The translations under genes were made by a program, and so were the position numbers. From a virus (taxonomy: Duplodnaviria > Heunggongvirae > Uroviricota > Caudoviricetes), in the IMG/VR virus record IMGVR_UViG_2734482786_000001, positions 1 through 25,360 of that record: 25,360 nt of DNA; one strand, written 5' to 3'. Below the pieces are notes generated by a model. It had not been told where the DNA came from and did not search any database. It saw nothing but the letters and a program-made list of their open reading frames with translations. Positions 9,506 through 25,360 of the stretch are shown here, in pieces; position 1 is the first letter of the stretch, and each line of letters begins with the position of its first letter.

Positions 9506-11272
9506 ATGAACACCACACTGACACCCGCAGATCTCGATCCCCGTCGGCAGGCCATGCTGCTGTACTTTCAGGGATACCGCGTCGCCCGCATTGCTGAAAT
9601 GCTGGGAGAGAAAGTTGCAACCGTTCACAGCTGGAAAAAACGCGACAAGTGGGGTGACTATGGGCCGCTGGATCAGATGCAGCTCACCACCGCCGCACGC
9701 TACTGCCAGCTCATTATGAAGGAGCACAAAGAAGGGAAAGATTTCAAAGAGATTGACCTGCTGGCGCGCCAGTCGGAACGCCACGCGCGGATCGGCAAGT
9801 TTAACAATGGCGGCAACGAAGCCGACTTAAACCCTAACGTCGCCAACCGCAACAAAGGCCCGCGCCGTCAGCCGGAAAAGAACGTTTTCACCGATGAACA
9901 GATTGAGAAGCTGGAAGAAATCTTCCATTCCTCCATGTTCAACTACCAGCGCCACTGGTGGGAAGCCGGAAAAACCAACCGCATCCGCAACCTGCTGAAG
10001 TCACGCCAGATCGGCGCGACCTTCTATTTTGCCCGTGAAGCCCTGATTGACGCCCTGCTAACCGGGCGTAACCAGATTTTCCTTTCCGCCAGCAAGACTC
10101 AGGCCCACGTCTTTAAGCAGTACATCATCGACTTCGCCAAAGAAGTGGAGGTGGAGCTGAAAGGCGATCCGATGGTGCTTCCTAACGGGGCCACGCTTTA
10201 CTTCCTCGGCACCAATGCCCGCACTGCCCAGAGTTATCACGGCAACCTGTATCTGGATGAATATTTCTGGATACCGAAATTCCAGGAGCTGCGCAAAGTG
10301 GCTTCCGGTATGGCTATTCACAAGAAATGGCGACAAACCTATTTTTCCACGCCATCCAGCCTGACTCATAGTGCTTATCCGTTCTGGTCCGGTGCGCTGT
10401 TCAACCGTGGGCGCAACAAAGCCGACAAGGTGGACATCGACCTGTCCCACAGCAATCTGGCCCCCGGCCTGCTGTGCGCAGACGGGCAATACCGCCAGAT
10501 AGTCACCGTGGAAGATGCGGTGCGCGGCGGCTGTAACCTGTTCGACCTTGACCAGTTGCGCATGGAGTACAGCCCGGACGAATACCAGAACCTGCTGATG
10601 TGCGAGTTTGTGGACGATCTCGCGTCCGTGTTCCCGCTCAGCGAGCTGCAGGCGTGCATGGTGGACAGCTGGGAAGTCTGGACCGACTTTCATGCACTGG
10701 CTCTGCGCCCGTTTGGCTGGCGCGAAGTGTGGATCGGTTATGACCCGGCAAAAGGTACGCAAAACGGCGACAGCGCCGGATGCGTGGTGGTGGCACCGCC
10801 AGCCGTGCCTGGTGGTAAGTTCCGCATTCTTGAGCGTCACCAGTGGCGCGGGATGGACTTCCGCGCCCAGGCTGACGCCATCAAAAAACTGACCGAGCAG
10901 TACAACGTGACCTACATCGGCATCGACTCGACCGGCGTCGGCCACGGGGTTTACGAGAACGTGAAAGCGTTTTTTCCAGCCGTCCGGGAGTTTGTCTACA
11001 ACCCCAACGTTAAAAACGCTCTGGTACTCAAGGCCTACGACATTATCAGCCACCGCCGTCTGGAGTTTGACGCCGGGCACACCGACATTGCGCAGTCATT
11101 CATGGCAATCCGTCGCGCCACCACCGCCAGTGGCAACCGCCCAACCTATGAAGCCAGCCGCAGCGAAGAAGCCAGCCACGCCGATCTGGCCTGGGCAACA
11201 ATGCACGCACTGTTTAACGAACCGCTGCAGGGCGAGTCCGCCAATACCAGCAATATTGTGGAGATTTTTTGA
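9506..11272 (+). CDS. P: Terminase large (ATPase) subunit gpP
   Basis: 588 aa; ATG start; size and position divergent from O as in P2; plus-strand gene pair P-Q. Confidence 0.9.
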   Translation: MNTTLTPADLDPRRQAMLLYFQGYRVARIAEMLGEKVATVHSWKKRDKWGDYGPLDQMQLTTAARYCQLIMKEHKEGKDFKEIDLLARQSERHARIGKFNNGGNEADLNPNVANRNKGPRRQPEKNVFTDEQIEKLEEIFHSSMFNYQRHWWEAGKTNRIRNLLKSRQIGATFYFAREALIDALLTGRNQIFLSASKTQAHVFKQYIIDFAKEVEVELKGDPMVLPNGATLYFLGTNARTAQSYHGNLYLDEYFWIPKFQELRKVASGMAIHKKWRQTYFSTPSSLTHSAYPFWSGALFNRGRNKADKVDIDLSHSNLAPGLLCADGQYRQIVTVEDAVRGGCNLFDLDQLRMEYSPDEYQNLLMCEFVDDLASVFPLSELQACMVDSWEVWTDFHALALRPFGWREVWIGYDPAKGTQNGDSAGCVVVAPPAVPGGKFRILERHQWRGMDFRAQADAIKKLTEQYNVTYIGIDSTGVGHGVYENVKAFFPAVREFVYNPNVKNALVLKAYDIISHRRLEFDAGHTDIAQSFMAIRRATTASGNRPTYEASRSEEASHADLAWATMHALFNEPLQGESANTSNIVEIF

Positions 11273-12303
11273 TGGGAAAGAGTAAGAAGAACCGCGCTGC
11301 GTCGACGAAACAGATCCAGCATAAAAGCCAGACTTCAGCCGAAGCATTCAGCTTCGGTGATCCCGTTCCTGTTCTGGACCGCCGCGAATTGCTGGACTAT
11401 GTGGAATGCGTACAGATGGATCGCTGGTATGAGCCGCCCGTCAGCTTTGACGGACTGGCACGAACCTTCCGCGCCGCCGTGCATCACAGCTCACCGATTG
11501 CGGTGAAATGCAACATTCTGACCAGCACCTACATCCCTCACCCGCTGCTCAGCCAGCAGGCTTTTTCACGTTTTGTGCAGGACTATCTGGTATTCGGTAA
11601 CGCCTACCTGGAGAAACGCACGAATCGATTCGGTGAAGTTATCGCCCTTGAGCCTGCGCTGGCAAAATACACCCGACGCGGATTAGATCTGGATACCTAC
11701 TGGTTTGTGCAATACGGCATGACTACGCAGCCGTATCAGTTCACGAAAGGCAGCATCTTTCATCTGATGGAACCGGATATCAACCAGGAGATCTACGGCC
11801 TGCCCGGTTATCTTTCTGCCATTCCGTCAGCCCTGCTCAACGAGTCCGCCACGCTGTTCCGCCGCAAGTATTACATTAACGGCAGTCATGCAGGCTTCAT
11901 CATGTACATGACCGATGCAGCGCAAAACCAGGAGGATGTGAACAACCTCCGCAATGCGATGAAAAGCGCCAAAGGTCCTGGTAACTTCCGTAACCTGTTT
12001 ATGTACTCGCCTAACGGTAAAAAGGACGGGCTTCAGATTATCCCGTTGTCAGAAGTGGCGGCGAAGGATGAGTTCCTGAATATCAAGAACGTGAGCCGGG
12101 ACGACATGATGGCGGCGCATCGTGTGCCGCCACAAATGATGGGGATAATGCCTAATAATGTCGGGGGGTTTGGGGATGTGGAGAAGGCCAGTCTCGTTTT
12201 TGTTCGTAATGAGTTAATACCATTGCAGAAACGACTAAAGGAACTAAATCACTGGCTTGGTGAGAAAGTAGTTAACTTTAAAACTTATGCCTTAAACTGT
12301 TAA
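11272..12303 (+). CDS. Q: Portal protein gpQ
   Basis: Track ORF starts at TTG 11269; the ATG at 11272 overlaps the P stop. About 343 aa. The last ~35 codons are AT-rich (see findings). Confidence 0.9.
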   Translation: MGKSKKNRAASTKQIQHKSQTSAEAFSFGDPVPVLDRRELLDYVECVQMDRWYEPPVSFDGLARTFRAAVHHSSPIAVKCNILTSTYIPHPLLSQQAFSRFVQDYLVFGNAYLEKRTNRFGEVIALEPALAKYTRRGLDLDTYWFVQYGMTTQPYQFTKGSIFHLMEPDINQEIYGLPGYLSAIPSALLNESATLFRRKYYINGSHAGFIMYMTDAAQNQEDVNNLRNAMKSAKGPGNFRNLFMYSPNGKKDGLQIIPLSEVAAKDEFLNIKNVSRDDMMAAHRVPPQMMGIMPNNVGGFGDVEKASLVFVRNELIPLQKRLKELNHWLGEKVVNFKTYALNC

Positions 12304-12320
12304 AAATTATTATGAAACAA

Positions 12321-12339
12321 GGCGCTTAACATAAGCGCC
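12321..12339. terminator. Bidirectional stem-loop between convergent Q and the DUF262 gene
   Basis: GGCGCTTA-aca-TAAGCGCC hairpin; on the minus strand it is followed by TTGTTTCATAATAATTTTT. Confidence 0.45.
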
Positions 12340-12348
12340 CAATATATA

Positions 12349-14130
12349 TTAGATTATATTATAGGCCTTCGCTGACATAGATAATGTTCTAATCTGAACT
12401 TTTTGGGCATTCCATTCCTCATCGTTAGATGAATACTCATCAATAAACTCATTAACCACCTTAAGGTTTGACTTCTTATACTCGTTTATTTTTTTACTTA
12501 AGCTATCATTTTTACATGATTCATTCAAAGTAAAGCAAAGAGGAAGAAGATTCCCCATTAATCCAACAACCTCTGAGTCAAAACTACTTTGTGCACCAAT
12601 ATGCTCGAGTGAAACTAAGTCTAATTTTAACTCATTAGTTCCTCGCAATTTCTTTTCAAAACGTTCAAAAATATACATTATGAGCTTACGCTGGGAGGCT
12701 TTTTTATTTGTATAAAATAAATTTTTAACAAATGCCTCATTGAATACTTTTTCATTTGGACTTTTCGCAGAAAAGTATGCTATTGCTTCACTAATGGTTG
12801 ATTCGATACTACGTTTATTAGTAGCTTTATCAAGGCTTACTGCTAATACTGAATACTTGGCGTCTATGCCAGAGGGTCTTAATCGGCAAATAGCATTAAA
12901 TCTAAAGTGGAATCTCTCTAAACACATTAGACACTCTATTAAACTTTTTTGCGAAAGACTTCTAGATTTATCTCTTCTTTTTCTTAATAATGACAAAATG
13001 AATGGGCGAGGGATTGAAACATTGAATATTTCAAATGCTTTAAGTGAATTGTAAATATCTCGCTGATCCTGTTGAGGCCAATCATCAATATCTGGAGAAA
13101 TTATCTTACAATATAAATCAACATCTTTATGCAACTCATCCAAAAATGAAATTGCAGTTAATCCATAAACACCATCATTTATCTCTCTTTTAAAGGCACG
13201 GTATAGTTGATCTTCACCTATATAATTAAACTTAGAAAGCCACCAACACCTGACATAATCAACCATTGTAGCGTTACTATCTCTAGCTTCGATGCAATTA
13301 GTAATATAATCCCATTTCTCTTTGGCTTTATCTATTGGATATGTTTCAATACAACTCTGGAAAACTTTATTTTTAATCAGATCAAGGGAGCTTAAGTTTA
13401 TTCCCCTTGCATTCAAAACCTCGAAAATATCATACGCGTCATCTTCCTTGCCTACTGATATCCTTACTAATTTAAGATAATTAGTAACCATATTGTAAAC
13501 GGCATTCAAGCAAAAAAGGTAATCTTCCTTTTTATACTTTACTGCACCGTCACGCAACAAAGAAGAACATAATGCTTTCTTTCCTAGCTTTCTGCTTAAA
13601 TACAACCCAGCATATTGAATCTTTTTATCTTCATCGCAAGTCACATCAGCTTTATGCTCAACTCTATCTTGGAATTTTAGTTTAAAAAAAGCCCTGTCAC
13701 TATTTTTAGAAAGCTTCTCAACTACTGAGTCGCCATTAGAACTGACAGAATTTCTATTGAACGTCTGATTTGCGGTTACGATATATGTTTTAAAAATATC
13801 ATCAGCAAATTCGGCCTTCCCATTTTTTCTTAAAAACCTAGAAATTAAAGAAAGTAGAATTGTAATAACACTGAAACGCTGCTGACCATCAACAATCTCC
13901 AAAACATTATCACTGTCAGCACCAGACAATACAATTGTACCAATAAAGTACTCATTGAATTCAAAGTCATCCCCTTTGGGATTTAATTTTATATTTCTTA
14001 TTATGTCTTGCCACAATTCATCAAGTTGTAACTTTTCCCAACTAAATTCTCGTTGATTCCGTGGAATCACATAACGCTGTTTAACAGAAAGTATATTTTT
14101 AATATTTAAAGGAGTTGCATCAAAATTCAT
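12349..14130 (-). CDS. DUF262/DUF1524 (GmrSD-like) nuclease family protein; candidate anti-phage defence gene
   Basis: N-terminal DUF262 signatures (VIPRNQREFSW, EIVDGQQRF, FEVLNARGINLSSLDLIKN) and C-terminal His-Me/HNH-like DUF1524 signature (SLEHIGAQ…GNLLPL…N). Start set at first ATG 14130 (RBS-like AGGGAA); the track ORF starts at TTG 14181. Strongly AT-rich relative to flanking phage genes. Confidence 0.75.
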   Translation of the reverse strand: MNFDATPLNIKNILSVKQRYVIPRNQREFSWEKLQLDELWQDIIRNIKLNPKGDDFEFNEYFIGTIVLSGADSDNVLEIVDGQQRFSVITILLSLISRFLRKNGKAEFADDIFKTYIVTANQTFNRNSVSSNGDSVVEKLSKNSDRAFFKLKFQDRVEHKADVTCDEDKKIQYAGLYLSRKLGKKALCSSLLRDGAVKYKKEDYLFCLNAVYNMVTNYLKLVRISVGKEDDAYDIFEVLNARGINLSSLDLIKNKVFQSCIETYPIDKAKEKWDYITNCIEARDSNATMVDYVRCWWLSKFNYIGEDQLYRAFKREINDGVYGLTAISFLDELHKDVDLYCKIISPDIDDWPQQDQRDIYNSLKAFEIFNVSIPRPFILSLLRKRRDKSRSLSQKSLIECLMCLERFHFRFNAICRLRPSGIDAKYSVLAVSLDKATNKRSIESTISEAIAYFSAKSPNEKVFNEAFVKNLFYTNKKASQRKLIMYIFERFEKKLRGTNELKLDLVSLEHIGAQSSFDSEVVGLMGNLLPLCFTLNESCKNDSLSKKINEYKKSNLKVVNEFIDEYSSNDEEWNAQKVQIRTLSMSAKAYNII

Positions 14131-14224
14131 ATCATCATTCCCTAGACATGACCATGGGTTGATCGTTAATTTACTTAACAAGATAGATTAAAACAACTAT
14201 TACTAATTCATATCTCAGCGCGCG

Positions 14225-14243
14225 CTCGTATCCCCGCCACGCC
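14225..14243 (-). other. Candidate cos site (19-nt cohesive end of P2/186-type)
   Basis: Minus strand reads GGCGTGGCGGGGATACGAG followed by CGCGCGCTGA; the first 13 nt match the 186 cos (GGCGTGGCGGGGAAAGCAT) as recalled, and the following GCGCGCTGA resembles the P2 left end. Confidence 0.4.
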
Positions 14244-14292
14244 TGCCCGCTTTATGTAGTGGTTTTCATGCACCTGCATGATCTACGCAAAA

Positions 14293-14312
14293 GCCCGCCA
14301 GTTCTGGCGGGC
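14293..14312 (-). terminator. Rho-independent terminator after the tum/DinI-like operon
   Basis: GCCCGCCAG-tt-CTGGCGGGC hairpin followed on the minus strand by TTTTGCG. Confidence 0.45.
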
Positions 14313-14447
14313 CTTAGCAAAAACGATCCTCAAACGATCATGCGATCTCATGCGGCATAGACATGCACTACAGAGCTAACGCCTCGCAAGGGCTCGTTGT
14401 TCAACCTTGCTGACGCCAGAAGCAAGTTCAGACGCCAGCAACGTTTC

Positions 14448-14681
14448 TTAATGCAGCCAGCTGTCGTCTTCCCACACCTTCTGCATAATTTTCATCACTT
14501 GTTTTCTTTCTTCGTCCTGTTGCAGCCCAGTCAGTTCCACACCGTTAGAGCTACCTTTGCGGATACGAATTACCGTTTTTGGATACAGGGGGCGCAGATT
14601 GCGGTAAAGCTCGGATTCAAGGGCGTCCAGGGTAGACTGGCTAATCTTCTGCTCTTTATCGATCATTATTTCAATGCGCAT
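14448..14681 (-). CDS. DinI-like protein (or C-terminal DinI-like domain of a Tum-type antirepressor)
   Basis: Start at MRIEIMIDK… with GAGGTGA RBS; MRIE…DAL..EL…WED.SW pattern matches the DinI family as recalled. The track ORF extends upstream to 14753. Confidence 0.7.
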   Translation of the reverse strand: MRIEIMIDKEQKISQSTLDALESELYRNLRPLYPKTVIRIRKGSSNGVELTGLQQDEERKQVMKIMQKVWEDDSWLH

Positions 14682-15033: not shown

Positions 15034-17448
15034 TTAATACAGGTTTCGCCACTTATCATCTTCCTGCAAACGCTGGTTCCGATAGAAGATACGCAGGCCT
15101 GCTCCTGACGGAATACTGCCGCCGCGAAGGAGTAAATCGACCTCTTTCTCGCTGCCATCAAATCCTCTGGACTTCAGTTCGTAGACGAGCTGCTGTCGCT
15201 GATGGTCTGTAATTCGCTGTTTGTAGTCTTTACGCCGTTTCGGTTTCACCAGGCGTAACCTTGCAGCCAGTTCCCGGCGCTCTTTTTTGCTCATACTGTG
15301 CAGGTAATCGTGCAACTCCTTGTCATCCATGCGGGTAATGTCCGTCCTGGTATCCCCATCAGCTGATTTGTCTTTCCCTTGTTGGTTCAAATTTTCAGCA
15401 AGGGGACAGTTATTGCCACGAGTCCAAGGGGCGCAAGCGCCCTGGTCGGCTGCCGCCTCCTGAACGTCAACGGCTTTACGAACCATTTTCCACTTCACTG
15501 CATGAGTGCAGATCTTGCCCTCTGCAATGGGTGACCAGATGCCATAAATACGAATGCCGTGATCGCCATAGGCGGTCGGCTCTTCGTTGATTTCATAAGC
15601 GGTTCTGATGAGGTGATATTTACGGGGAACCAGTACGCCGCCCTGCTTCATGATGTAGGTGGCAAAACAACCAGCATCAGCAGCAGCCAGAATGGCATCA
15701 AGACGCGGGTTATCCAGTACCGGCGCACCTGCATTTTTGTCCCCCTGTTGCCTTGCCGCCTGACCAGCCAACAATCGCAGTTCACGGTAAGCCTGACGCC
15801 CCGGAATGCCAAAGAAGCGGAATTGCTGAACACGATGCAAAGACGCCCAGGCATTCACGTATTCAGCGTTATCACGCAGAGATTTACCCGTTTCCTTGCT
15901 GATCTCGCCAGCCAGACCACGACCGTCAATGTTCTTACTGATATATTTCGCGATGTAGCTTGTCGGCGTTCCTTTGCGCGGGTTAATCAACTCAGACTTA
16001 AAGCGCGGCCCAGTGTTATTGCCCAGCTCCTCGCGGTCTTCACGGATGGCAAACTTACGCAGTAATGCAGTGATGGCACGGCGGTCTTTTTTGCGCATGA
16101 AACACAACAGGTGCCAGTGAACTGTGCCATCATGATGCGGCTCAGCCACCCGCACGCCATACCAGCGCAACCCGGCTTTGTGCATCGCCTTACGAAATGC
16201 AGCAAACATGCCGACCAGATAATCGCTGCTTTGTCTTACCGTCGCGTTTGTCCAGGTCGGGTTTGGTCTGCCGTTATTTAGCGTGGAATGGAAACGCGAC
16301 GGACAGGTGATAGTGTAGAAAACGGCGCAGTCACCGCGCATTTCCGCGATAAGCTCCAGACCTTTAACACAGGCCATCATCTCATTGCGGCGATGCGCAG
16401 GGTTGCTGCTGCTGGCGTTTACCACATCCTCCATGTCCAGCGTGTCGCCGTCTTCGTTCACCAGTTCATGAGAACGGAAAAACTCCAGCGACTTACGGCG
16501 CTGCTCACGTTTATGCATCACGGCTTCATAGCTGACATAAGGAGATGCTTTTTTGCTGACCAGGCAAACAGCGCGCAACTGCTCTTCCCGCCATTCGCAA
16601 CGCATCTTCCATAATTTCCGATACCACCAGTCGGCGCACAACATACGCGCCAGCGAACCCGGAATGAGTTCATAGGGCACGGGTTTACGGCGGTTTCTTT
16701 TCCGACGGAGTTGCTCAAACGCAGGTGGGATGACATCCAGACGCAGGGTCTCCGCTGCCACCTTTTCCCATGTCTTGCGGATTTCTTCTGGCTTAACGTC
16801 ATCGGTGGCATACAAATCACCACAAGCTGCATCAAGGCACATACTCATATGCGCAGCTACCAGGGTGGACAGGCGTTTCACCTGATCCTGACTCATTTCA
16901 GGCAGGATCAGCAGGCCGTCCAGCCCTTCATGGCTTGCCATAAAGCGAAAAGATGCAGATAGCTGACTGTCGCGTACATGCTCCAGTCGTTCCAGACATG
17001 GCTTAATCGTCTCACGTAAATAGCGGGAATAAGCCTTTGGCCTGCCCAGGCTGCTGAAGTATTCAATACGTTGCATCAGCGGCTTGCTGATATGGGAAGG
17101 CTGGGCGTTGACGTCCGCCAGAATGACCATGTCTGAATTAAAACGCTGCTGCTCATGCGCCAGCTTTGCCCGGCTAATGAGCTTATCCTGCTCCATTTCG
17201 CGCTGGACAGGATCACGTGATTCATTAAAGAAATAACGCTCCCAGACCTGATCACTCAGTGCCTCGCGGCGCAACTGTTCCTGCTCGTTATCGGCAGCGT
17301 ACAGAGTGATCAGGTTTGAAAGCGTAGAAACCGGCGCAACTTCCGCCGGGTCCAGATAAGGGTTAATGGCCTTTTTCGGGCTGTTCCATGAGAATGCTGC
17401 GGCAGCCTCGTTAAAGCCGCAGCAGTTGTTCATATCGGCATGAGTCAT
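15034..17448 (-). CDS. A: Replication initiation protein gpA (rolling-circle endonuclease)
   Basis: 804 aa; HUH-like motif region (…[10 protein letters not shown]…) and active-site Tyr region (…[10 protein letters not shown]…); ATG start overlapping the dam stop. Confidence 0.85.
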
Positions 17449-18302
17449 GCACGTACTCCGTACACGGCAGAACTATCCACGCCACGCGAATAATCAAATC
17501 CCATCCAGCAGCACGGCCCGGAAACAGCAATGATTTCTGTTGCTGATTTACCCTCGCCAGCTGCCACACCGATGCTGCGTTTTACCTTGATATAGTGGTG
17601 AGTAAAATTGCGATACAGCGAACGGATCAGGGATGTGTCACTGTTAGAAACAATGACTGGATGTCCTTCTGATGACCGATGTTCAAGAACGGATGCCAGG
17701 TGATACTGGTCATCTTCAGTGAAACCATCAGTGTGATAGCCGGAAAACGTACCGTCATACGGCGGATCGCAATACACCACATCTCCCGCGTGCAACATTG
17801 CCAGCGTTTCATCGAAGCTGGCGCAGATAAATGTTGCCCGCTGGGCTTTTTCTGCAAATGCACGAATTTCTTTTTCAGGGAAATACGGATTTTTATAATT
17901 ACCGTAGGGAATGTTGAAATGCCCGCTCTTGTTATAGCGACATAAACCACGGTAACCGTGCCGATTGAGATACAGGAAATATACCGCTTTCATGAAATCA
18001 GTAATTTCAGTGGAGTAATTAAACTCCTGCCTTATGTTGTAATAAGCCACCTCCCTGTTTGCGATCTCAAATAAAACTCTGGCGCGAGATATAAACGATT
18101 CACAATCAGCGGCAACCTTTTTATAGAGGTTGATTAAATCAGGATTAATATCCGCAACCAAATAGCTGGGGTAATCCGTCTCCATCATCACAGCACAAGA
18201 ACCCGCGAAAGGTTCAACCAGTCGCGGGCCAGCAGGAAGGTGTTTTTTCAGTTCGGACATAATGGCGGTTTTATTACCCGCCCATTTCAGGATGGTGCTC
18301 AT
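17445..18302 (-). CDS. dam: DNA adenine methyltransferase (Dam family, N6-adenine)
   Basis: 285 aa; AdoMet motif I ([10 protein letters not shown]) and catalytic DPPY ([12 protein letters not shown]). Confidence 0.85.
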
Positions 18303-21130: not shown

Positions 21131-22150
21131 ATGACCATCAGAAAACAGCCGAACGGAAAATGGTTGTGTGAGTGCTATCCCAATGGACGCAATGGTAAGC
21201 GCGTGCGTAAGCAATTTGCTACCAAAGGCGAAGCTATTGCATTTGAAAGCTTCACAATGGAAGAAGTGAACAAAAAACCATGGCTGGGGGAAAAGGAAGA
21301 TCGGCGACATTTATCAGAATTAATTGAGCTGTGGTATTCCCTGTATGGTCAAACACTCACAGACCCCAAGCGCCTCATGGCGAAACTTAGTATTATCTGT
21401 AATGGTCTAGGCGATCCCATCGCTTCAGAACTGACAGCCGGTGACTTTACGAAATACCGCGAAGCACGGTTAAAAGGTGAAGTACGAAATGAAGATGGCA
21501 CGCTTATGTCGCCCGTTAAGCCCCGCACGGTAAACCTTGAACAGCGCAATCTATCATCTGTTTTTGGTACACTGAAAAAGCTGGGCCACTGGTCAGCCCC
21601 CAACCCGCTTGCCGGGCTGCCAACATTTAAAATTGCTGAGAGTGAATTGGCGTTCCTGACCCCGGAAGAAATTAAACGTCTGCTGGATGCCTGTGCTGAT
21701 TCTCAAAGCTCTAGTCTGCTGACGGTTGCAAAAATATGTCTGGCCACCGGCGCGAGATGGAGTGAAGCCGAAAACCTGCAGGGCCATCAATTATCAAAAT
21801 ACCGGATCACCTACACCAAAACTAAAGGCAAGAAAAACCGAACCGTACCGATATCTCAGGAGCTATATGAAGAACTCCCCAAAAACAGAGGGAAACTATT
21901 CACGCCCTGCAGAAAAGCTTTTGAGCGCGCAGTAAAACGAGCCGGTATAGACCTGCCTGAAGGCCAGTGCACACACGTGTTGCGCCATACATTCGCCAGT
22001 CACTTCATGATGAATGGCGGAAACATATTGGTACTACGCGATATTCTTGGTCACTCTGATATAAAAATGACGATGGTTTATGCTCATTTTTCGCCAGATC
22101 ATTTAGAAGATGCTGTAACAAAAAATCCACTGGCTATGTTGGGATACTGA
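21131..22150 (+). CDS. int: Tyrosine integrase (P2/186 family)
   Basis: 339 aa; C-terminal catalytic region HVLRHTFASH…LGHSDIKMTMVYAH (R…H-x-x-R…Y). Confidence 0.9.
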   Translation: MTIRKQPNGKWLCECYPNGRNGKRVRKQFATKGEAIAFESFTMEEVNKKPWLGEKEDRRHLSELIELWYSLYGQTLTDPKRLMAKLSIICNGLGDPIASELTAGDFTKYREARLKGEVRNEDGTLMSPVKPRTVNLEQRNLSSVFGTLKKLGHWSAPNPLAGLPTFKIAESELAFLTPEEIKRLLDACADSQSSSLLTVAKICLATGARWSEAENLQGHQLSKYRITYTKTKGKKNRTVPISQELYEELPKNRGKLFTPCRKAFERAVKRAGIDLPEGQCTHVLRHTFASHFMMNGGNILVLRDILGHSDIKMTMVYAHFSPDHLEDAVTKNPLAMLGY

Positions 22151-22152
22151 TA

Positions 22153-23184
22153 ATGGAAAAAAGCATTAGCACATTTATGTACCTATCCGTTTTATTAGGT
22201 TGTATATTCTTATTTATAAAATATCGACTTTATGTTCTCGATCATAGAAGCCTGTTCCAACAACCCTTGTTCTGGGCTGCAATAGGCCTACCTTTATTCA
22301 CCAGCCTTTACTTTGGTTCTTTTGTCTGGATAGATAAAATACACTCTTTTAGTCTTACAAGTCACGGTTATGAGAGATTTTTAGATATCTCGAAATTACC
22401 ATTACTCATCCTTGCATCTGCAGTACCTTTAGTTTCAATAGTAAACAACCTACACAGAACCAAACAAACAGAAAAACAGATCTCAGAGGCAGAAAGGAAA
22501 AACAGGGTAGATTTATATTACAACCACATGAAATTTCATCTTGATTTATATAAAAAAATCGAAGGAAAAAGAATAGGCAGCTACTACCCGGTTCAGGAAG
22601 CTCAAGCTGAAGCAATCTACCAACATTTTATAAAACATCCACAAGAACTATATAGAAAAGCATACCCACAATCTACGCCTGATGATTCTCAACAATTAGA
22701 TATTAATGAGCAATTTGTTATTGATTTACACAAATGTTGGGTAGAAATCAACGCAAGACTCAAGCAATTATCCGAGAGTGAAAATCAAATACATCCTACA
22801 GAGGAACTTTGCACAACAAAGATGAGAATATTTGTAGGAGTTATGATTATTTATGAAAAAACTTGTAAACTGTTGTGTTTAGGTGGATTTCATTATAAAA
22901 AGTCATTTGTAATAAATGATAGTTATAATAAATACCAAGTTTATTCACCATTTTATGATTTTGGCACTCTGTACGAATCACTGCAATCCTTAGAAGAGAT
23001 AACCTACGCCTTCTTGGATACTTGCAGAAATGAAGTGGTAAACTTGTACTTCCCTATAGAAGATAAAATTTTGATATATGGTGAAGGGATTCTAGAGAAT
23101 TGGTTCAAGTATTCTCAGTTCTTGATCACTATAGCTTATCAACCCGCCAAGATGTCTCGCTTACCCCAGCTGAGACGCGATTGA
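22153..23184 (+). CDS. Membrane-anchored protein of unknown function (cargo between int and att)
   Basis: 343 aa; ATG 2 nt after the int stop; three predicted N-terminal transmembrane helices, then a ~230-aa soluble domain with no motif recognised by eye; markedly AT-rich. Confidence 0.6.
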   Translation: MEKSISTFMYLSVLLGCIFLFIKYRLYVLDHRSLFQQPLFWAAIGLPLFTSLYFGSFVWIDKIHSFSLTSHGYERFLDISKLPLLILASAVPLVSIVNNLHRTKQTEKQISEAERKNRVDLYYNHMKFHLDLYKKIEGKRIGSYYPVQEAQAEAIYQHFIKHPQELYRKAYPQSTPDDSQQLDINEQFVIDLHKCWVEINARLKQLSESENQIHPTEELCTTKMRIFVGVMIIYEKTCKLLCLGGFHYKKSFVINDSYNKYQVYSPFYDFGTLYESLQSLEEITYAFLDTCRNEVVNLYFPIEDKILIYGEGILENWFKYSQFLITIAYQPAKMSRLPQLRRD

Positions 23185-23300
23185 TGATGGCGACATTTTG
23201 GCGGCAGAGCTTTAAAAACAGATAAAACTGTCAAACACCACATAACACTAAAGTATTGTTTTTAAACATAAATCATTATTTTTTCTGTAGTAAAAATGGT

Positions 23301-23345
23301 ATGTAGGAATTTCGGACGCGGGTTCAACTCCCGCCAGCTCCACCA
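23301..23345 (+). repeat. Prophage attachment-site core: 45-nt duplicate of the ssrA (tmRNA) 3' end
   Basis: ATGTAGGAATTTCGGACGCGGGTTCAACTCCCGCCAGCTCCACCA matches the 3' terminus of E. coli tmRNA as recalled; upstream flank is AT-rich phage DNA, not tmRNA body. Confidence 0.75.
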
Positions 23346-23505: not shown

Positions 23506-25360
23506 TCAGAACGACCAGTTCACACCAGCTACCGCGTTCCACGGGGATTCCACACCGGCACTATGGCTATACCCCACCCCAAGATGCCCGCTTAACGTAC
23601 TGCTGAATGAGGCTTTAATACCTGCCTGGTATATTCCACGTCTGCCCGACAAATAATTGACGAAATTACCGTCACTATTCACTTTCACCCGGTTATCATC
23701 GACAAATTCTTTGCGCACAGCCGCCTTCAGCCACGGCTCAACTTCCATACCGTTCCCCAGACGCATGTTGTAACTCAGCGTTGCGCCCAGTTCACGATAT
23801 ATACTGCGGGTATCGACTGATTTCGATTTCATGCCATTGGATAAATGATATTCGGGGTTATCAGCGGTGAACCCCGTTAACGATGCATACGGCGTCAGGT
23901 TCCAGTTACCATCGGTAAATCGCATCCCGGTTTCAATGTGACCGCCCAGCCCGTTGCTGTGGTAACTGCCATTGGCGGCTCCACCGCTGCTCATTTTACC
24001 TGCTACGTTACTTTTAAAACGGTTCAGCTTCACGACACCGTCCAGATAGAAACCACTTTCATGTTCCCAACTGGCATAGCCGCCCAGAGAATAACTGCCC
24101 ACACTGCCATGTCCTCCGCGATCAAAACCGATATGTGAATGGGAATAGCCCATAAAAGCGCCTAGCGTGGTAATTCCTTCAGGAATATCATTACGGCTGT
24201 CGATCCCCACTGTCATTCCGGTCAGCGTCTGCTCAAACCCGGCACCCGCATCGGTGGTGACATTATTACGGGTGTTATACGTCGCCCCCCAGACATTATT
24301 GTTGTGTGGACTCGCTTTCATTATGTTCAACCGCTCGCGAATACTGTTTAGCTCAGCATCAAATACCAACGGTAATGTTGCTGCCATATTGAGTACGGCT
24401 GCCGTAGAAGGCGTAATGCGTTTCTCCGGAACGGGTGTCGGCGTTGGATCGGGAGTAGGGTCTGGTTTTGGATTTGGGTCTGGCTTTGGATCGGGTTTTG
24501 GGTCTGGCTTTGGATTTGGGATGGGGTCCGGGTTGGGTTTGACATCATTGGTCAGGTTCCAGTTGCTGTTGCCGTCACTTTTCAGGACATACTCATAGGT
24601 CCCAAGATCAACGAAACCGCCGGTATTGCCCAGCGTAAACGAAGCATCCCCTCCCCCTGTTTTCACCAGCGTCATCGCGTCGTCAGACTGTGGGCTGACG
24701 CCGGTATCCTGAACAAAGATTTTAAAATTACCAGTGGCGTTGTTGTTGACGACCAGTTGATCGCCCCGGGAGCCTGCAACGTTGGTATGCAGGTAGAAAT
24801 TACCGCTACCGGAAAGTTCATTGGTTGTCAGCGTATTGTAGATACCGTTAGTTGTGGCAGGCGCTGCTGTTTGTGCTGACAAATAAACATCACCGTCGTT
24901 GAGTAGCAAACTGTTTACTCTATATTCGCAGTTGCTGGTACCTGCACAGGAATTATTGCTGTTAAGCCAGACACTGCCCCGGCTGGCAGCCGTCAGGTCG
25001 GCAAGCGTGGTATCGACGCCATTTCCCAGAGTCAATGTCGCGCTATCGGTAATCCGGACCGCCCCTTCGAGTTTAACTGGCGTAACATTATCCCGTGGCG
25101 TCATTAACGACAGGCTTCCTGTCGCGCCACTGACCGATGCATCCGCCAGCGTACCTGCGTAGACGATTGCCGTACCGCCAGCGACCTGGAGATCTTCTGC
25201 CCGGGCCAGAGCCTGAAACTCATCTTTTGACCGCCCAAGGGTATATTGCCCGCCAGAGTTAACCTTTGTGGCGGAGTCCTGACCCAGGTTTTGCATTGCC
25301 CCACCCTTGCCAACCGTGGAGTCGCGAGCTTCGGTACCTGCTAAGGAAGGTGCGAACAAG
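23506..25360 (-). CDS. Autotransporter (type Va) outer-membrane protein, C-terminal part; gene continues beyond window end (host gene, possibly YpjA-like)
   Basis: C-terminal beta-barrel-type domain ending …VNWSF, Pro-rich PDPKPDP linker, Ser/Thr/Gly/Asn-rich passenger; no start codon context in window. Confidence 0.8.
   Translation of the reverse strand, partial: LFAPSLAGTEARDSTVGKGGAMQNLGQDSATKVNSGGQYTLGRSKDEFQALARAEDLQVAGGTAIVYAGTLADASVSGATGSLSLMTPRDNVTPVKLEGAVRITDSATLTLGNGVDTTLADLTAASRGSVWLNSNNSCAGTSNCEYRVNSLLLNDGDVYLSAQTAAPATTNGIYNTLTTNELSGSGNFYLHTNVAGSRGDQLVVNNNATGNFKIFVQDTGVSPQSDDAMTLVKTGGGDASFTLGNTGGFVDLGTYEYVLKSDGNSNWNLTNDVKPNPDPIPNPKPDPKPDPKPDPNPKPDPTPDPTPTPVPEKRITPSTAAVLNMAATLPLVFDAELNSIRERLNIMKASPHNNNVWGATYNTRNNVTTDAGAGFEQTLTGMTVGIDSRNDIPEGITTLGAFMGYSHSHIGFDRGGHGSVGSYSLGGYASWEHESGFYLDGVVKLNRFKSNVAGKMSSGGAANGSYHSNGLGGHIETGMRFTDGNWNLTPYASLTGFTADNPEYHLSNGMKSKSVDTRSIYRELGATLSYNMRLGNGMEVEPWLKAAVRKEFVDDNRVKVNSDGNFVNYLSGRRGIYQAGIKASFSSTLSGHLGVGYSHSAGVESPWNAVAGVNWSF

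Follow-up and report, generated by a model that had tools for sequence, protein, structure and literature searches.

The window analysed here, a 25,360-nucleotide stretch (positions 1 to 25,360) of the IMG/VR Caudoviricetes record IMGVR_UViG_2734482786_000001, holds a 186/P2-like prophage of Escherichia coli that is reversed relative to the P2 map and carries a single AT-rich gene between its cohesive-end site (cos) and the portal gene Q. This GmrSD-like gene very probably encodes a defence nuclease of the GmrSD superfamily carried as hotspot cargo. Its product is a member of the superfamily, with both Pfam domains above their cut-offs and the motifs intact, and the gene is exchangeable cargo of the cos-proximal (gpA-gpQ) hotspot, not a core phage gene. 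The gene, its domains and its motifs lie as follows.

12349..14130, minus strand: GmrSD-like coding sequence, 593 amino acids (aa), identical to RefSeq WP_047662251.1 'DUF262 domain-containing protein'
13360..14103, minus strand: N-terminal DUF262 / ParB-like nucleoside triphosphatase (NTPase) domain, aa 10-257 (PF03235, GmrSD_N)
12376..12756, minus strand: C-terminal DUF1524 His-Me finger nuclease domain, aa 459-585 (PF07510, GmrSD_C)
14038-14055, minus strand: QREFSW, N-terminal domain
13876-13890, minus strand: DGQQR (D81-R85), N-terminal domain
13402-13425, minus strand: FEVLNARG, N-terminal domain
13369-13383, minus strand: DLIKN, N-terminal domain
12598-12606, minus strand: EHI (E509-H510), C-terminal domain
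12538-12555, minus strand: GNLLPL (with N527), C-terminal domain
12508-12528, minus strand: LNESCKN (with N536), C-terminal domain

The initial annotation, made from the DNA letters, had read DUF262 and His-Me finger motifs in this gene, and DGQQR, FEVLNARG, DLIKN, EHI and GNLLPL are all present. Profile searches agree: PF03235 matches at 112.2 bits (cut-off 33.2; E 4.5e-32) over profile positions 1-199 of 199, and PF07510 at 37.1 bits (cut-off 23; E 3.6e-9) over positions 3-135 of 138; NCBIfam gave no meaningful match for the protein. Invariant across 35 homologs with 36-91% identity are QR..SW, D81-G-Q-Q-R85, E509-H510, G526-N527-L528, N536 and K547. The AlphaFold2 model, with a predicted local distance difference test (pLDDT) score of 85.8, has a strand at 506-510, a strand at 528-532 and a helix at 533-539, forming a beta-beta-alpha unit around H510, N527 and N536. 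The domain order is ParB-like DUF262 NTPase, helical linker and DUF1524 His-Me nuclease, and no sensor domain besides this architecture was seen in the Pfam matches or the model.

An open reading frame (ORF) at 12349-14181 on the minus strand, the span originally assigned to the gene, does exist in the ORF list (610 codons, opened by TTG at 14181), but its start is probably misplaced. The TTG lies in frame 17 codons upstream of an ATG at 14130, which is the RefSeq start of the gene at a 99.8%-identical locus in Escherichia coli strain 573. Because Met1 at this ATG is the common start in 35 of 35 aligned homologs, 12349..14130 is the likely coding sequence; ATG 14130 is probably the true start, and the TTG is unlikely to be used. 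The encoded protein is 100% identical to cluster P0001 (178 member sequences). The gene is under strong purifying selection, with ratios of nonsynonymous to synonymous substitution rates of 0.03-0.05 (0.049 against the Salmonella ortholog).

The AT-rich segment with a single gene between cos and Q, which the initial annotation had recognized, measures 1.97 kb (12250-14216) and has a G+C content (GC) of 32.4%, against 52.1% in the remaining window; the gene itself has 32.5%. Homologs have 33-38% GC regardless of host, including one at an Aeromonas locus whose flanks reach 62.5%. The slot is delimited by the following features.

12250..14216, no strand: exchangeable AT-rich cargo module, about 1.97 kb, running from just past cos into the last Q codons; bounded by composition, BLAST limits and the alignment of Q 3' ends
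12320..12340, no strand: GC-rich hairpin (stem of 9 bp) in the gap where Q (stop at 12303) and the GmrSD-like gene (stop at 12349) converge; a terminator-like site was called here on the minus strand
14217..14275, minus strand: cos region, with the 19-nt cohesive-end sequence GGCGTGGCGGGGATACGAG at 14243-14225; last conserved DNA before the variable cargo
11269..12303, plus strand: portal gene Q (PF04860; RefSeq 'phage portal protein'), conserved right-hand anchor of the slot
14448..14681, minus strand: DinI-like gene (PF06183, 5.8e-23; RefSeq), closing the early (gpA) operon beyond cos

A search of the window for the exact P2 cos 19-mer, with up to 3 mismatches allowed, gave 0 matches; we located cos by direct reading, by alignment to the annotation of phage Cartapus and with a relaxed pattern. 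Over its 59 bp the cos region matches the 'putative cos site' annotated in Cartapus without a difference; GGCGTGGCGGGGATACGAG and the DNA on either side align to P2 cosR and cosL joined together, and 10 related prophage loci conserve them. As GGCGTGGCGGGGATACGAG marks cos at 14243-14225, the gene sits between cos and Q. Just past GCGCGCGCT (~14216), sequences part ways according to cargo type, and BLAST homology to other prophages has its limits at cos and, towards Q, at ~12210-12267. Q itself ends in ~40-90 nt (within 12210-12303) that are AT-rich and vary with the adjoining cargo between prophages, so that the recombination junction of the module lies inside Q and C-terminal portal residues are swapped along with the cargo. 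P2 has only a short stretch here, as first described, with 167 bp separating cosL (1-19) from the Q stop (187). The hairpin at 12320..12340, at whose position P2 has its tQ terminator, is likely a shared predicted terminator of Q and the GmrSD-like gene.

Comparison of the cos-Q interval across related prophages establishes the gene as cargo. The whole region occurs in 18 of 5,426 complete E. coli genomes, and 1,287 share the flanks with other cargo; on these counts the alternative of a core phage gene was rejected. The gene is missing in >98% of related prophages that retain the same cos, Q and P. Between portal and DinI, other prophages carry DUF4145, HNH, TIR, SEFIR, PIN, SieB, S1 peptidase, DprA with phosphoribosyltransferase, RES, TIGR02391 and hypothetical genes. 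Two sub-slots can be filled together: locus L014 has DUF262 on the Q side and ComF with a hypothetical gene on the DinI side, and locus L013 has DUF4145 and HNH. This 'HNH endonuclease', WP_000207842 (L013:1726-2445; Rousset 2022 supplementary table), recurs on the DinI side with various Q-side cargos and co-occurs, for example, with another DUF262/DUF1524 allele, WP_094658700.

Orthologs hold the same cos-Q position in Salmonella (91% identity) and Enterobacter (82%), as does a divergent E. coli allele (37%). At 47-51% identity, relatives in Aeromonas, in Vibrio and in another E. coli element stand alone at other places, and homologs occur as stand-alone chromosomal genes outside phages in many phyla. 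No recurrent partner gene emerged from 183 Pfam families in 125 nearest-neighbour ORFs at ~70 loci from many phyla; the commonest neighbour families were RE_AlwI (6), N6_N4_Mtase (4) and ResIII (3).

This distribution bears on whether the gene serves defence at all. It might instead be a selfish or phage-lifecycle nuclease (a homing-type element, or one acting in host-DNA degradation or as a packaging accessory) that merely lies near cos. We consider this highly improbable: the gene does adjoin cos and packaging genes, yet prophages keep the same cos, Q and P without it and P2 needs nothing at the cos-Q position. HNH-type nucleases help packaging in some phages, and other prophages have the 'HNH endonuclease' gene in the neighbouring sub-slot; set against these points are the chromosomal homologs outside phages and an architecture and motifs that match validated defence proteins.

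Among such proteins, the closest match lies outside the canonical GmrSD group. Searches of the defence database PADLOC gave best matches to models of HEC-06, a validated stand-alone GmrSD-like anti-T4 system, all near full length: PDLC04154 (3e-73; residues 18-609 against profile positions 5-563 of 569), PDLC04157 (4.5e-72) and PDLC04155 (1.6e-65). A second tier consists of 'Orf5' (DndI-family) models, at up to 208 bits, and the SspE and mREase_IV models match the N-domain only. ORF5 is the older name of a gene in the Salmonella dpt cluster, and a DndI fragment maps to the Orf5 model PDLC02701 at 738 bits, confirming that 'Orf5' denotes the DndI family. Validated HEC-06 itself scores 551 bits on PDLC04154 (HEC-06) and 465 bits on PDLC02687 (Orf5) in PADLOC-DB v2.0.0; as it matches both models, the labels overlap, and automatic annotation of GmrSD-like proteins can be ambiguous. 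The window protein also matches PHROG 21165 ('unknown function') at 2.7e-173. Because its scores reach no more than 245 bits with the HEC-06 cluster and 115 bits with the DndI cluster, at 24% identity to HEC-06, sequence comparison places it in a separate subfamily (PHROG 21165) within the HEC-06/DndI-like branch of the GmrSD superfamily. By the same comparisons it is nearer to HEC-06 than to DndI, and canonical GmrSD and BrxU are both remote.

HEC-06 (Payne et al. 2024, bioRxiv 10.1101/2024.01.29.577857; E. coli WP_096851903.1) shares with the window protein a single-gene DUF262-linker-DUF1524 architecture of similar length, the DGQQR and EHI-type His-Me motifs and stand-alone action without a modification partner. 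The contexts differ, HEC-06 having been discovered inside Hma/restriction-modification (RM) systems, whereas the window gene is prophage hotspot cargo. In HEC-06, Q79A/R80A in DGQQR and E471A/H472A in EHICP abolish protection (Payne et al. 2024, 10.1101/2024.01.29.577857).

The GmrSD/BrxU-type architecture proposed in the initial annotation stood at the level of the GmrSD superfamily; the nearest characterized relatives proved to be HEC-06 and DndI rather than canonical GmrSD or BrxU. Canonical GmrSD (EcoCT596, Eco94GmrSD; PMC4437046, PMC4619093) has the same Pfam domains, is likewise prophage-borne and excludes T-even phages with glucosylated hydroxymethylcytosine (glc-hmC). However, only the N-terminal domain of the window protein matches PADLOC mREase_IV (5-265 of 629 profile positions), and canonical GmrSD resides in an SfII-like prophage beside tail fibre genes. 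An assignment to the canonical Eco94/CT596 type was not upheld, PDLC03655 covering residues 24-284 only, at 50.7 bits. BrxU (PDB 7P9K) resembles the window protein in its GmrSD-family fold, DGQQR and (D/E)HI nuclease motif, but the window protein reads LDELWQDI instead of RLFDS and its gene lacks embedding in a bacteriophage exclusion (BREX) system. A BrxU-type assignment was rejected on the missing phmmer match, the weak fold match, the missing RLFDS motif and the phage-gene neighbours.

Structural comparisons bring DndI to the fore. In a fold search of the PDB (E <= 0.001), the model matched DndI (9JFL; template-modelling (TM) score 0.69, E 4.4e-16), SspE (E 2.4e-14) and BrxU (E 7.5e-6, TM 0.32), and a fourth match, the isolated SspE C-terminal domain 7DRI, lay at the 0.001 cut-off. 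With phmmer against the PDB, DndI (9JFL) was again best (E 4.8e-9), the SspE N-domain also matched, and BrxU had no match at E<=1. DndI, the ORF5 product of the Salmonella dnd (dpt) cluster, shares the domain order, a DGQQR ATPase and an HNH-type nickase with the window protein at ~17% identity in the structural alignment. It is a default-active nickase that phosphorothioate (PT) in self DNA stimulates as an ATPase and releases, and it is toxic without PT; mutation of the Q/R residues in its DGQQR abolishes ATPase activity, and N541 is essential (PMC11662687). As DndI and HEC-06 stand in one family, that family contains both logics of telling self from non-self.

The window protein could be a nickase of the DndI/SspE type, directed at DNA without a host self-mark (PT, for example), with a self-mark-triggered NTPase freeing host DNA. 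For this speak the leading place of DndI in both sequence and full-length fold searches, with SspE next, and the Orf5 scores of up to 208 bits; the true DndI cluster reaches 115 bits only. DndI also needs IscS-DndBCDE phosphorothioation, and no dnd gene is linked to the window gene: dnd/ssp genes were found neither in the window, nor in the E. coli twin locus L001, nor in 11 further homolog loci (6 proteins), the remainder of the host genomes not being included in the search. Dnd/Ssp families are likewise missing from the 25 commonest Pfam families among the nearest-neighbour ORFs. The prophage moves among E. coli, Salmonella, Enterobacter and other genera, yet DndI without PT is toxic. Finally, the PT-sensing Tyr25 of DndI, an aromatic residue in an N-terminal hydrophobic pocket, aligns with Asn25 of the window protein, which as one pairwise alignment is modest evidence; position 25 is N in 18 of the 35 homologs, F in 9 and Y in 8. 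A self-mark-restrained nickase of this kind is improbable in our judgement, and a PT-dependent DndI-type role is unlikely.

We favour, with somewhat better than even confidence, a full explanation in which the gene is a lysogenic-conversion defence gene encoding a single-protein, modification-dependent, Type IV-like restriction enzyme. Synthesis would take place in the lysogen and probably be driven by a promoter of the gene itself, given that a predicted terminator and cos part the gene from the repressed early operon. It would probably be dimeric, by analogy with DndI, SspE and BrxU. Nucleoside triphosphate binding and hydrolysis at DGQQR would couple DNA sensing to an active site comprising E509, H510, N527 and N536, which would nick or cleave incoming phage DNA. 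The non-self mark would most likely be a hypermodified base, for example hydroxymethylcytosine (hmC) or glucosyl-hmC, by analogy with HEC-06 and HEC-06_Bact, and host and prophage DNA with ordinary Dam/Dcm methylation would escape attack. We favour HEC-06 logic over DndI logic because of the stand-alone, highly mobile context. Modification dependence we infer from relatives at 22-24% identity; expression, oligomeric state, substrate and phenotype are likewise presumed.

The trigger is where this explanation leaves most room. A GmrSD-like defence nuclease might respond instead to some other base modification, to a structure in the DNA or to a protein of the phage, or might act by host-damaging abortive infection, and we give this a minority chance. 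Its subfamily, PHROG 21165, is its own, no PADLOC cluster being matched at a member-level score, and HEC-06 itself is described as structurally distinct from GmrSD, BrxU and SspE (Payne et al. 2024, 10.1101/2024.01.29.577857). Specificity is also plastic in other nucleases of this functional class (PD-T4-3 on Mu DNA). By contrast, the two members of the HEC-06 group that have been tested both act against T-even phages, one of them requiring cytosine modification: HEC-06 blocks T4, and HEC-06_Bact, a 22%-identical homolog, blocks T2, T4 and T6 yet fails to block cytosine-unmodified T4-GT7. The lack of any sensor domain beyond DUF262-linker-DUF1524 likewise argues against another trigger.

In the Salmonella prophage with the 91% ortholog, the DinI-cos side (L003:3705-5749) is taken up by a gene for a C5 cytosine DNA methylase (PF00145) together with a 285-aa gene. 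This pairing, which favours another trigger in that 5-methylcytosine (5mC) would be tolerated at least in that methylase's sites, suggests that the ortholog spares the methylase's 5mC pattern or that both are expressed at separate times.

A smaller chance falls to a PHROG 21165 enzyme with a new recognition logic, either dependent on a modification other than hmC or glc-hmC, or following a DndI-like 'attack unless restrained' rule without linked modification genes. The fixed site of the gene ~95 bp from cos, the packaged genome end, could also affect its expression or timing.

Several observations weigh against the modification-dependent restriction enzyme as we propose it. A scan of 12200-14500 for sigma-70-like promoters returned 8 sites, the background level given a shuffle expectation of 8.5, and none of them in the interval from cos to the ATG, so that expression in the lysogen is an assumption. 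The identity to validated HEC-06 of 24% extends over 437 aa (E 3e-27), and on the HEC-06 model, where HEC-06 itself reaches 551 bits with its first 399 aa, the window protein scores 245 bits. Among solved structures the closest is that of DndI, whose target is unmodified DNA and which a host mark holds back. Moreover, no isolate in the phage isolate collection carries the gene; tblastn of phage records returned only weak matches to unrelated phages, mostly of Listeria, at <30% identity save one short 34% fragment.

The setting of the gene is well documented. The gpA-cos-gpQ region is a published defence hotspot of P2-like prophages (Rousset 2022 PMC9122126; Vassallo 2022 PMC9519451; a 2026 Nucleic Acids Research (NAR) paper on P2/P4). 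The P2 old/tin hotspot is the same in concept and flanking genes, but from cos, old and tin are found towards gpA and the window gene towards Q, and the proteins are unrelated. The supplementary table of Rousset 2022 (PMC9122126) lists 'DUF262/DUF1524' arrangements many times, including the same exact protein in NZ_CP035312: 'hypothetical + DUF262/DUF1524 + DinI; WP_001154434 + WP_047662251 + WP_001217575'. No DUF1524 protein appears in that paper's table of tested candidates (supplementary file 7), and DUF262/GmrSD goes unmentioned in the main text of Vassallo 2022 (PMC9519451) and of the NAR 2026 P2/P4 paper. The first GmrSD enzymes, CT596 and Eco94GmrSD, were prophage-borne phage-exclusion genes and are the founding example of the family (PMC4437046, PMC4619093). 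Our literature search found no paper naming both GmrSD and P2-like phages, and none testing the PHROG 21165 subfamily.

Hotspot, protein architecture and the role in prophage exclusion were each established before, and the gene is a further example of a known phenomenon. The interpretation given in the initial annotation is supported as regards the domains, the motifs and the non-core status of the gene; the interest it assigned was too high, because the hotspot and the exact protein are already published.

The prophage genes stand in the order terminase P, portal Q, GmrSD-like gene, cos, DinI-like gene, a small ORF, gene A, a Dam-like methylase, the CII/Fil/CI region and the integrase. Those placed individually are these.

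9506-11272, plus strand: terminase P
15034-17448, minus strand: replication gene A
17445-18302, minus strand: D12-class N6-adenine (Dam-like) orphan methyltransferase (PF02086 3.6e-76; PADLOC oMTase 3.5e-111), just upstream of gpA
21131-22150: integrase

The GmrSD-like enzyme must tolerate Dam-like methylation by the prophage's own methyltransferase, an arrangement repeated in the Salmonella and Enterobacter relatives. After the DinI-like gene, a hairpin with a T-run was read by eye at ~14289-14312, where the scan tool made no call. At the other end, an Rfam transfer-messenger RNA (tmRNA) match of 52 bits spans 23169-23345 on the plus strand; ARAGORN called no complete tmRNA, and 23305-23345 was read directly as the ssrA 3' end (GGACGCGGGTTCAACTCCCGCCAGCTCCACCA), so that the prophage is integrated at ssrA and this site is a copy of the attachment site (att). 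Between the integrase and the prophage end, a 343-aa ORF (22153-23184, plus strand) without a Pfam or PADLOC match is a possible cargo gene in the int-att position, which is a minor P2 defence hotspot (NAR 2026 P2/P4 paper). Outside the prophage, an autotransporter adhesin gene (23506-25359, minus strand), with AIDA, Pertactin and Autotransporter beta-domain matches, reaches the window edge.

If active, the GmrSD-like gene would be one more interchangeable prophage-borne Type IV-like restriction gene shaping phage infection of E. coli, Salmonella and Enterobacter lysogens, which bears on host range in phage therapy and on the modification-dependent nucleases catalogued as epigenetic tools. Standing between the modification-dependent HEC-06 and the self-mark-restrained DndI, its subfamily could help to map the switch in logic within the GmrSD superfamily.

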